From positions 1 to 33,348 of the forward strand of contig CAMTVO010000029.1 of assembly GCA_947085205.1 (NCBI GenBank): DNA of 33,348 bases. Direction: 5' to 3'. Positions 15,001-18,000 of the stretch are shown one piece after another. The position numbers were made by a program. This DNA comes from an uncultured Nitrospiraceae bacterium. Lineage in GTDB: Bacteria > Nitrospirota > Thermodesulfovibrionia > Thermodesulfovibrionales > Dissulfurispiraceae. Position 1 is the stretch's first letter, and every line of letters begins with the position of its first letter.

Positions 15001-18000
15001 AATACCTATCTGAGAGAGGAAGAGAGGAGGGCGGCAGCGGTTATTTATAAGACGCTCCTTTCTGCTTCACAGGTGATAAGATTAGGGACATCAAAGCCCA
15101 TTGACGTAAAAAGTCACATGAATGATGTGTTAAAGGCAGAGACGCTCATTTCCGAGATACGGTATGCAGGTATTTATGACACAGAAATGTTGAATGAGTT
15201 GGATGAATTTAAGAAGCAGAATCTTCTTGCAATAGCCGTAAAAATTGGCGATACACGGTTAATTGATAACATGCTTGTGGAATTTTAACTTAATCGTTTG
15301 CCTTAGCCTACGCTTACCTGTTTCTGCTGTTCGAACATCTCGATAATCTCTTTTACTGTATTTGTGTCTTCAGGTCTTTTGTCGAATCTGATAAAGCCTG
15401 TCGACCTCGGAAACCTTAGGGCATAGCCTATATCGTCTTTATCCCTTCCTGCAGTATGGGCAGGAGATCGGGTAATCTCGTCAGCCATAACAGTGATCAC
15501 ATATTTTGGCTCAACCCAGACATCCGCATCTATTACAGAATCAACCCTCGGGTGTTTGTGCTTTATCGAAATTTCATCGAGCATCTTTTTAAGCTCAATG
15601 AACTCGTCCTCTTTGAACCCGGAGCCTATCTTGCTTACGGTCTTAAATGTATCTGTCTCCGGTTCATAAACCGCTCCTAAAAGCGCGCCTACGCCGAATT
15701 TTGCCCTTGCGCCTTTTCCCCTGAAATATCCTACGATGCAGACATCAATGGTATCTGCAATCTCTCCTTTATAACTCCTTTTGAGCTTAATCCAGTTGAA
15801 ATTCCTTGCGCCTGCGGAATAAGGCGCATCAAGCCTTTTGGCAACAACCCCTTCAAGTCCGCGCTCAACGGCGCTTTCAAAGTATTTGAATATCTTTGAT
15901 GGATTATCTGTTACAAACATCTCTGAAGGCTCGATGATGTCGTTCTTTTTGATTATGGCCTCAAGTTTTTTTCTTCTTTCTAAAAAAGGCTTTTCCGTAT
16001 AATCAACGCCGTCCAGATAGAGCAAATCGAAAACAAAGAATTTTAATGGGAGCTCCTTTGAGAATTCCTCTATGCCGTGTTTTCTCTTTCTCTGGATTGT
16101 TACCTGAAATGGGAACAATTCCCCTGTGCCTTCATTATAGGCCAGAGCCTCTCCCTCGATAATTGCCTTTTTTGCATTGATGTATTTTTTCATTCCCATC
16201 GTGATCTCGGGGAACATGTGTGTTGTCCTTTCGAGGTTTCTCGAAAACAACTCTACCTTATCATCGTCCTTGTGGCACTGAACCCTGAATCCGTCATATT
16301 TCGCTTCAATTGCCGCCTCGCCGATTTTCTGGATAATATCTTCAGATGATGAAAGCCTTTCGCACAAGGCCATCCTTATTGGATAGCCTACCTGAACTTT
16401 GAATTTTCTTACGCCTTCTATGCCTTTTTTGATGAGCCTCTTTGCAACAAGACCCAAATCAGAGCATAGATTGTATGCCCTCTCAAGCTCAGACCTCAGT
16501 TCCCGATTACCAATGCTTAATGCAAGGGCTTCCAGCACCGTCGGGTCTCCTATCCCGAGCCGCAACCTTCCTATCACGAATCTCGCAATGTATTTTGCAT
16601 CTTTGGGAGAAACGCCTTTAAAGAGATTTGAGAGCAGGCTTATCTTCTTCTCTACGCTTCCATGTCCGCCTGTCTGTGCTATGTCCGTGAGTTCTTCATA
16701 AACCTGTTTTACTGTAAGGTCATAGCCCTCTCTCTTATTCAGTTCTTCCGCCGTCCTTCCCATGTCGCCTGTATGCCTGAAGGTCTGCTCCACTTTTTTG
16801 GTAGGCGTCTCTGTTGCGTCCGATATTGCCCGTATGAGGAGCTTTTCTGATATGCCTATTTCGAGCCCGTGAAACGGCGGCAAAAGCTGCCCCTGACTCA
16901 GGTATATTATCTTGTCTATGTCCTCTCCCGACGCCTCTTTAAAGAGTTTGGCAAGGATATCGAACATCTCCAGACGCTTTGTCGTCTCCTCAAGCCTTTC
17001 AAAATATTCCACAAGTCTTTTAAATTTCATATCCTTATCACCTATAGCCCATTGCCTATCGCCTTATTTCGGCACCCAAACCTTTCCTTTATCTATAATA
17101 TGTTCCACGACCCATCCCCTTCTATGGAGTTCCCGTGCCATCCATCTCCTGTGGCACTTCCAAGGAAATTTCTCAGCGCATATTATTACTGCGTTATTAT
17201 GAACAGCATTTTCGAGTTTATCAATCCCCTTCCTGAATTCTTCGGTAGTAGAATAGGCTTCGTATCCGCCTTTTCTGAATCCACCGAGTTCAACACCTAA
17301 AAAGATGTAAGCTATCCCCTCTTTATTTAAAAGGTCTTCGAGATAATCTTTTGTAAATGTCTGTATCTTGCTTGTCGGAAAACGTCTGACATCGACGACT
17401 GTCTTTATGTCATAAAACAGGAGGATCTCTATGAAATCCTCCTCGCTCCTCCTGCTTGTACCAAGTGTGCATATTGTTTTCAACCAAGTTGCCCAAAATT
17501 AATGTGATTATCACGCATATGTGCTAAAATGCGCTATTAATTTACAGCTTTCTGAAATCTGTCCCTTTTGGAATAACCACTATACCGTTCGGGCTTACGG
17601 GAAACTTCTTTCTGTCTTCACCGATATTGTATCCGATTACTGTCTCCGGAGGTATGTATACATCCTTATCTATGATTGCCCTTTTTATTTTCGAATACCT
17701 TCCTATCTCCACATTTTCCATGAGAATGGATTCTTTGACGGATGTCCAACTGTTTATTCTTACATTTGGAGACAGGATGGAGTTTTGCACCCTTCCTCCA
17801 CTTATTATACATCCATCGCAGACAATGGAATCCAGCGCTATTCCAAGCCTTCCACCTTTTTGTTCCTGTGCAAATACGAATTTGGCAGGCGGGTTCTGGC
17901 ATTGATATGTCCTTATGGGCCAGGCTTTATCGTAGAGGTTTAATAATGGATCGACAGAAACAAGGTCCATATTTGCTTCCCAGTATGCATCTATGGTTCC

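Follow-up and report, generated by a model that had tools for sequence, protein, structure and literature searches.

The analysed window, contig C29 of the study genome G000 (33,348 nt; the assembly comprises 1.89 Mb in 65 contigs and is 89.7% complete), carries on its minus strand the gene of a DNA ligase (Table 1). The gene probably closes a run glgC-DUF488-lig, which is kept by synteny in G060, G109, G037, G088 and G090 and faces panC, an arrangement common to four close relatives. In the neighbour tables, the DUF488 gene adjoins the ATP-dependent ligase in four families (f1, f6, f12 and f20). A promoter scan found one sigma-70-like site matching at 11 of 12 positions (18831-18803), but the 4 sites of the region lie below the shuffle mean of 7.9.

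Table 1. Features at the ligase locus, with positions counted along the window.
Feature	Position	Strand	Evidence and remarks
panC	14440..15288	+	TIGR00018, 346 bits; convergent flank downstream of the ligase, kept in four close relatives
ATP-dependent DNA ligase	15303..17030	−	ORF, 575 aa, ATG start; archaeal/Lig1-type, three domains; sole DNA ligase found in the G000 assembly
OB-fold domain with motif VI (R539-F-P-R)	15378..15695	−	DNA_ligase_A_C, PF04679 (Pfam aa 446-551), E 3.2e-16
Adenylation (nucleotidyltransferase) domain, aa 222-417	15780..16367	−	DNA_ligase_A_M, PF01068, E 2.3e-54
Motif I (K244-Y-D-G-F-R249), Lys244 codon	16299-16301	−	within the adenylation domain, as are E393 and K415/K417
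N-terminal helical DNA-binding domain, aa 2-170	16521..17027	−	DNA_ligase_A_N, PF04675, E 8.5e-44
Shortened loop, aa 98-104	16719..16739	−	gap in the alignment with 2hiv and 2cfm; archaeal relatives have a longer Qxx-LF/FF loop
DUF488 gene	17064..17483	−	PF04343; 33 bp upstream of the ligase, same strand
glgC	17542..18831	−	TIGR02091, 500 bits; heads the probable glgC-DUF488-lig run

The survey's finding had described the gene as a three-domain ATP-dependent ligase, and an intact gene of this kind is borne out by Pfam, by TIGR00574 (471.1 bits against a cut-off of 217.8, with profile positions 2-527 of 527 covered) and by the closest solved structure, 2hiv (E 2.7e-151, aa 1-571). The catalytic motifs KxDGxR, EGxxxK, KxK and RFPR are all intact, and no variation was found among 80 homologues at K244, D246, G247, R249, E393, K415, K417, R539, F540 and P541. 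The dN/dS values of 0.033-0.071, calculated for 15 pairs of six family members, indicate purifying selection, and the GC3 of 0.49 is typical of the genome (mean 0.45 ± 0.06). By its sequence, the G000 protein is classified as an archaeal/Lig1-type ATP-dependent DNA ligase and not as a LigA, LigB or LigD, and it is predicted to use ATP as cofactor and to seal nicked DNA.

Other assignments were tried and rejected. The helical DNA-binding domain architecture is shared with LigB, which together with LigC and LigD is listed as a repair enzyme alongside LigA in Table 2 of PMC12133292, but the scores for the LigB and cisplatin-response models stay far under the cut-offs (PRK03180, 248 of 641 bits; PRK09247, 175 of 543; TIGR04120, 147 of 400). 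A LigD/NHEJ ligase was likewise dismissed, the protein scoring under the cut-offs of TIGR02776 and TIGR02779 and the Ku search giving 0 in G000, in agreement with the earlier statement that neither LigD nor Ku is present. The domain set of an NAD-dependent LigA (Ia, PF01653, OB, zinc finger, HhH, BRCT) was not found in the protein, and no NAD-binding Nlig-Ia domain is among its Pfam matches. A phage origin was rejected as well: searched by tblastn, 50,697 phage records yielded 53 matches, all below 60% identity and none with 80% coverage.

LigA itself had been claimed to be missing from G000, and three kinds of search agree. A PF01653 search of the assembly returned 0 matches even at E 10 (control detected in 11/14), while tblastn and an HMM built from the LigA of six relatives recovered only a helix-hairpin-helix scrap on contig C58. 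The gene had also been called the only ligase of the genome, which holds for DNA ligases; a weak second PF01068 match, considered as another DNA ligase, belongs to a ligase-fold gene on contig C10 and proved to be a Pab1020-type RNA ligase (TIGR01209, 328 bits). DnaN and PolA are present in G000, and PCNA_N was not found there.

To place the gene among its relatives, the 31-genome table of the survey was redone on four lineage samples drawn by taxonomy, 474 genomes in total (Thermodesulfovibrionia, Nitrospiria, Aquificota and Dictyoglomota; CPR/Patescibacteria were not among them), with labels of their own, under which G030, G061, G069, G077 and G079 carry LigA. Each sample outside the own class includes its centre genome, which was picked as a carrier, and completeness values are confined to the own class. 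Altogether, 107 genomes had the ATP-dependent ligase without LigA (ATP-only), 344 had LigA only, 2 had both and 21 had neither, that is, LigA was absent from 107 of 109 carriers of the ATP-dependent ligase and present in 344 of 365 non-carriers. Related genomes are not independent, and Fisher p-values for this anticorrelation therefore overstate it. In the own class, Thermodesulfovibrionia (251 genomes), the four states were found in 34 (ATP-only), 204 (LigA-only), 2 (both) and 11 (neither) genomes; LigA thus occurs in 206 genomes and an ATP-ligase orthologue (59-100% identity) in 36, across 12 of 22 families, after 49 of 85 matching genomes (25-37% identity; LigB, LigC and LigD types and fragments) had been excluded. 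The class of G263, titled Nitrospiria (121 genomes), had 32 ATP-only, 80 LigA-only, 0 both and 9 neither, and Aquificota (91 genomes) had 30, 60, 0 and 1, respectively. Two of these 30 share 49% identity; the tree puts one of them inside the clade, and the other is partial and unplaced. All 11 Dictyoglomota have the ATP-dependent ligase and none has LigA; four of their loci matched at 50-53% identity, in line with the 51% identity to a Dictyoglomus ligase given before, and the other seven were identified by PF01068 only.

The subfamily was also found without LigA in MAGs titled Chloroflexota, Acidobacteriota, Omnitrophota, Firestonebacteria and Clostridia, and among 39 further bacterial carriers, which partly overlap the samples, LigA was detected in 1 and the control dnaN in 37. 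The survey's view of a second isolated case within one order was therefore too narrow, the same pattern recurring in Nitrospiria, Aquificota, Dictyoglomota and MAGs of further titled phyla. As an internal control, a more distant ATP-dependent ligase of the Aquifex type (44-46% identity), which forms a separate branch outside the subfamily, was found in 17 Aquificota with LigA alongside in 17/17. This indicates that the anticorrelation with LigA is specific to the G000-type subfamily.

Exceptions were inspected individually. The mutual exclusivity stated earlier holds as a strong tendency and is not strict, as G109 of the own class has both ligases intact and under purifying selection, on different contigs. 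G202, also counted as having both, is doubtful; the 1,473-bp contig with its LigA piece contains nothing else, and in the tree this LigA falls outside those of the class. Both ligases are present in G259 as well. Among 17 re-tested genomes with neither ligase, two (of the 11 in the own class) hold C-terminal pieces of LigA, and the remaining ones are probably assembly gaps. Two further ATP-ligase-domain genes occur in G263, so exclusion does not single out the subfamily enzyme in that genome. The broken LigAs of G010 and G006 were considered as decay after displacement, but neither genome has an ATP-dependent ligase, and sequence errors are the more likely cause.

An assembly or binning artefact would place LigA in the missing tenth of G000 and make the ATP-dependent ligase an auxiliary repair enzyme like bacterial LigB. 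The fragmented state of the assembly would allow this, the 21 of 474 genomes with neither ligase show that gaps do occur in such assemblies, and auxiliary three-domain ligases do exist, both in the 17 Aquificota and, at about 30% identity, in G148 and G218. Nevertheless, the near-complete separation of the two ligases among carriers and non-carriers speaks against an artefact, and so do the complete relatives, as the survey had argued: 14 ATP-only genomes of the own class are 98-100% complete, and LigA was not found in the single-contig chromosomes G333, G310, G312 and G263, so that its absence is not an assembly gap. The full-length LigA model was applied to ten ATP-only genomes, of which four are single-contig chromosomes or carry such a title, and only HhH/BRCT scraps were obtained in 10/10. 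Moreover, three close relatives have cinA-ligA at the ksgA site, and in G000 this site lies unbroken on a single contig; it holds MntA-HepT and cas6, and the starts of ksgA and mntA are 49 bp apart. A contig of a different study also spans the site (run X2, positions 4991-5387 of L047; X1 may be the source). An artefact is therefore largely refuted already, and we consider it very improbable.

The two ligases were found to alternate at the same chromosomal positions. In genus g34, the slot that separates rluB from a glycosylase gene holds cinA-ligA (2.6 kb) in G211 and the ATP-dependent ligase in its congeners G147, G100 and G192 (1.9 kb in G147), with flanks 83-92% identical as far as the slot edges. 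G017 (LigA) and G219 (ATP-dependent ligase) have both flanks in common; one flank is common to G024 and G053/G084/G117, and to G013 and G164. By family, the ATP-dependent ligase occupies the LigA slot of relatives with both flanks in f10 and f6 and with one flank in f16 and f2/f12, and genus g9 shows all three ligase states. One further slot holds LigA in both G036 and G077, the usual type in G077 and a very divergent one in G036. The ATP-dependent ligase and cinA-ligA have replaced each other repeatedly in Nitrospirota, often at one slot. In-situ displacement is reportedly the subject of a 2003 paper by Omelchenko et al. The gene of G000 lies in the glgC-panC slot, which is not a LigA slot.

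At least 24 of 36 ligA loci have cinA (PncC) immediately upstream, and since PncC recycles NMN, the by-product of LigA, the pair makes a sensible cassette; the cinA of G000 itself is a different copy, located within a pgpA-cinA-thpR run. The synonymous divergence (pS) between G211 and G113, a member of another genus, was 0.41 (0.36-0.46) for ligA and 0.27 for cinA, compared with 0.63-0.64 for rluB, aspS and rpoB, and divergence this low between genera requires transfer. A second locus concerns the run radA-lipoprotein-ksgA, which is uninterrupted in six family members, three ATP-only and three with LigA elsewhere, while in G109, G048 and G085 an oppositely oriented cinA-ligA splits the run; it is absent from two other genomes tested, and G088 holds other genes there. 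A move within the genome followed by losses may account for this locus as an alternative. The ksgA site of G000 was also considered as a ligA deletion, which is weakened because the site is an insertion hot spot, its MntA-HepT being shared with G085 and its cas6 with G008.

The direction is readable for these two events, with cinA-ligA as the newcomer in both. The survey had proposed that LigA was displaced non-orthologously by the ATP-dependent ligase; the complementary distribution agrees that one enzyme stands in for the other, but the proposed direction was not borne out. Phylogenies were compared to follow the direction further. An RpoB tree was built from 71 genomes, namely the 36 carriers of the class except G147 and a choice of LigA genomes. 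In it, the earliest branches of f3, f6 and f12, and those around genus g9, are ATP-only genomes, and all sampled members of f13, f14, f15, f19, f20 and f21 are ATP-only. The subgroups of the ATP-ligase tree match families and orders, and its normalised RF distance to the RpoB tree was 0.44, with 1 of 14 strong splits in conflict, whereas the LigA tree (G036 and G202 left out) had a distance of 0.71, with 4 of 10 strong splits in conflict. The AU test (LG+F+G4, fast search) rejected the species-tree constraint for LigA (p 3e-5) and marginally for the ATP-dependent ligase (p-AU 0.037). The latter value, together with the ATP-dependent ligase of G176, which differs from those of its congeners by a pS of 0.64 compared with 0.22 for rpoB, indicates that the ATP-dependent ligase also moves. 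The ATP-dependent ligases of Nitrospirota form one clade (SH-aLRT 99; 0.996 in another tree), sister to members from Aquificota (SH-aLRT 99). From these trees, the ATP-dependent ligase looks old in Nitrospirota and mostly vertical in inheritance, and we lean slightly towards its having been present already in the class ancestor.

These data were weighed under three histories. As a tentative reading, somewhat short of an even chance, the archaeal-type ATP-dependent ligase would be the ancestral replicative ligase not only of Nitrospirota but also of other deep lineages (all Dictyoglomota and one third of the sampled Aquificota), derived from one archaea-to-bacteria transfer, and LigA would be re-invading these lineages as a mobile cinA-ligA cassette that overwrites the resident gene in place. 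If, instead, LigA was ancestral throughout, the ATP-dependent ligase would have come by several separate transfers and displaced LigA each time. The presence of LigA in 206 of 251 class genomes and the frequent cinA-ligA pairing are consistent with such a history, as is the mobility of the ATP-dependent ligase, both between phyla (its sister relation to Aquificota) and within a genus, with its marginal AU result; but the single Nitrospirota clade with subgroups tracking families and orders, the first-branching position of ATP-only genomes in f3, f6, f12 and around g9, and the fact that both readable events are gains of LigA argue against it, and we regard it as unlikely.

It is also conceivable that both ligases are ancestral, possibly adjacent, and that many reciprocal losses followed, the same-slot pairs being the residue of a two-ligase block. 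Same-slot pairs would then need no repeated targeting, family f10 has a separate own clade for each ligase, G109 has both, and the LigAs of g9 and of the neighbouring lineage G130 are sisters (0.952), consistent with LigA having been inherited vertically and lost repeatedly. Yet the two-ligase state, which would have to persist along every backbone branch, is seen in 2 of 474 genomes today (one of them the doubtful G202), the two genes of G109 lie on different contigs, and transfer is needed to explain how little cinA-ligA differs at synonymous sites between genera. Joint ancestry is accordingly judged unlikely as well. One ligase would suffice for a cell, and genomes with both would therefore be rare, one gene being soon lost.

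With regard to the origin of the enzyme, the survey had pointed to kinship with crenarchaeal ligases, but the nearest relatives of the G000 protein proved to be other bacterial and DPANN-type ligases (50-63% identity). The bacterial members share a clade with ligases titled Nanoarchaeota, Pacearchaeota and Parvarchaeota, and this clade lies within a wider set of archaeal ligases. A single clade of all bacterial members was not rejected (p-AU 0.55, which is no proof), and the root rests on two outgroup rows. As judged from the tree, the donor appears archaeal-type.

Compared with the archaeal replicative ligase (2hiv, 2cfm, TIGR00574), the G000 protein matches over its full length, with three domains and all catalytic motifs, and its subfamily nests among DPANN-type ligases; it differs in having a host with DnaN and no PCNA, and in a loop that is short in 46 of 50 bacterial members and long in 23 of 31 archaeal ones; among the bacterial enzymes, those of f14 have the long form. 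This Qxx-LF/FF loop is presumably the PCNA-binding element of the Sulfolobus and Pyrococcus ligases. If so, the G000 ligase, with its shortened loop and no PCNA_N found in the genome, does not belong to the PCNA-partnered archaeal ligases. A complex prediction for DnaN and the ligase scored 0.59, compared with 0.44 for a control, and gives no verdict either way.

Taken together, the gene is very probably the housekeeping (replicative and repair) DNA ligase of G000, belonging to a bacterial subfamily of archaeal-type three-domain ATP-dependent ligases that replaces LigA in many lineages. The replicative role is suggested by exclusion, as no other DNA ligase was found, and essentiality, Okazaki sealing and clamp independence would be expected of such an enzyme. 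In the proposed mechanism, the usual ATP ligation in three steps, ATP would adenylate Lys244, as the conserved motifs suggest, and AMP would move from Lys244 to the 5′ phosphate at the nick, the DNA-binding, adenylation and OB domains clamping the duplex to seal it. The ligase would act behind a bacterial replisome (DnaN, no PCNA), on nicks left once primers have been removed; with the archaeal clamp-binding loop presumably lost, it would probably locate nicks via its own DNA-binding domain. Foreign ATP-dependent ligases can rescue E. coli ligA mutants, which makes a ligase swap biochemically plausible.

In teaching, NAD- versus ATP-dependent ligases mark the boundary that separates bacterial from archaeal-eukaryotic replication, and the NAD-dependent enzyme is presented in textbooks as universal among bacteria. 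The either/or pattern in several phyla implies that this divide is less strict than taught, the exception to the NAD-ligase rule extending over more than 100 genomes, several phyla and one entire phylum sample. LigA should not be used as a universal bacterial marker or as a universally essential gene, and, if the ATP-dependent ligase was indeed ancestral, the ligase cofactor would be a freely swapped trait and not a marker of the bacterial domain. In a table of a 2025 review, LigA still stands as the replicative ligase of bacteria (PMC12133292), passages in PMC8455567 repeat the standard view of ligases, and the bacterial preference for NAD-dependent ligases has been called a long-standing question (bioRxiv 10.1101/2020.05.11.089284).

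The only stated earlier bacterial case found in our literature search is the AD-Lig P of high-light Prochlorococcus marinus, self-described as the first, for which same-slot replacement was also reported (bioRxiv 10.1101/2020.05.11.089284). By description, it resembles the present case in the lack of an intact LigA, in an ATP-dependent ligase in the LigA slot and in a replicative role assigned by exclusion. It differs in being confined to a single ecotype group within one species, in its truncated LigA remnants and in an assayed enzyme, whereas the present archaeal-type subfamily occurs in more than 100 genomes of at least four lineages. Here, one phylum sample lacks LigA throughout, G000 showed no LigA remnant and swaps have gone both ways. 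The displacement is thus of the Prochlorococcus type; what sets it apart is the archaeal-type enzyme, the spread over several phyla and the occurrence of both directions.

Other known systems come close in single respects. According to a passage in PMC1684257, the ATP-dependent ligase of Aquifex aeolicus clusters with crenarchaeal enzymes and is, like that of G000, an archaeal-type three-domain enzyme in a bacterium; we equate it by inference with the 44-46% type that accompanies LigA in Aquificota. Haloferax volcanii, whose LigN and LigA are described in passages of PMC1684257 and PMC3914693 as NAD- and ATP-dependent ligases redundant for one essential function, is a mirror image, in which archaea acquired the bacterial NAD-dependent ligase. 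The 85 curated replication and repair genes of Dictyoglomus turgidum include one ligase (Dtur_0780, ATP-dependent) and no NAD-dependent one, and the section on replication genes passes over the missing LigA, leaving the fact implicit in print (PMC5167688); by Table 5 of that paper, D. turgidum counts as a cultured ATP-only organism. PMC3879981 has no DNA-ligase passage. Our search, with subscription literature outside its scope, found no publication stating a multi-phylum absence of LigA, and this wider pattern has probably gone unreported so far. The congeneric pairs differing at one slot (G211 versus G147, G100 and G192) and the three-state genus g9 provide material to test why LigA is preferred in bacteria, whether the recycling of NMN by PncC co-travels with it and how an archaeal ligase functions without PCNA.

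In the DNA-binding domain of the ATP-dependent ligases, the enzymes of family f14 (loci L054, L055, and L056), unlike other bacterial members, carry a long loop after the GDxG motif. These loops hold QPVSLF-, PASLF-, or PETLF-like motifs, and may represent a regained clamp-binding motif. At the C-terminus of the protein, a Q[KR][KRQ]VxV-like tail was found retained in most Nitrospirota and Aquificota and in many DPANN-type members. A DUF488 gene adjoins the ATP-dependent ligase in four families and, in the relative G017, is the second gene upstream of ligA; this recurrent company of ligase genes suggests a role of DUF488 in nucleic-acid repair.

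PolA of the Nitrospiraceae assembly (G000) is encoded as two separate genes for the 5′-nuclease and the polymerase with a DNA methyltransferase gene in between. The polymerase begins with a QFSLF motif, which resembles the beta-clamp-binding consensus. Because 119 of its 120 best homologues are 567–617 aa long and lack the nuclease domain, the split is, by this homologue comparison, common to the whole lineage.

Among relatives, the highly divergent LigA of G036 scores 56 bits against PF01653 versus about 330, and is placed behind cinA, the same position as the usual LigA in G077; no ATP ligase was found in G036. Probably, a foreign LigA took over the place of the resident one in this genome. 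Frameshifted LigA genes were observed in G006 and G010 (loci L039 and L041), neither of which yielded an ATP ligase, and the frameshifts are probably sequence errors. In G148, which also has LigA, a LigB-like three-domain ATP ligase different from the G000 type adjoins an XPG/FEN1-type nuclease gene.

Coordinates of the features described (L, locus; C, contig; G, genome)
Feature	Position	Strand	Remark
Ligase C-terminal Q[KR][KRQ]VxV-like tail	window 15303-15335		
DUF488 gene	window 17064-17483		
PolA 5′-nuclease part	L277:1675-2592 (G000 C64)	+	305 aa
PolA polymerase part	L277:4511-6325 (G000 C64)	+	604 aa
Highly divergent LigA	L060:2973-4988 (G036 C60)		672 aa; PF01653
LigB-like ligase and XPG/FEN1-type nuclease gene	L057:915-3609 (G148 C2)		
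Protein-only RNase P-type gene	L253:1175-1918 (G000 C10)	+	PIN_5, TIGR03875
Pab1020-type RNA ligase	L253:1915-3030 (G000 C10)	-	
MntA-HepT type VII toxin-antitoxin pair and cas6	L047:5239-6838 (G000 C38)		inserted beside ksgA
Low-GC gene pair	window 318-1720		weak MutH and HARE-HTH matches
MazE-type/PIN toxin-antitoxin pair	window 4852-5533		

The protein-only RNase P-type gene and the Pab1020-type RNA ligase of G000 are convergent, a pairing described in PMC12153264. Inserts at the ksgA site vary among G085, G008, G109, G048, and G088. Within the window, the low-GC pair is perhaps a restriction-type module, and the hemA-hemC-cysG/hemD run is broken by the MazE-type/PIN pair.
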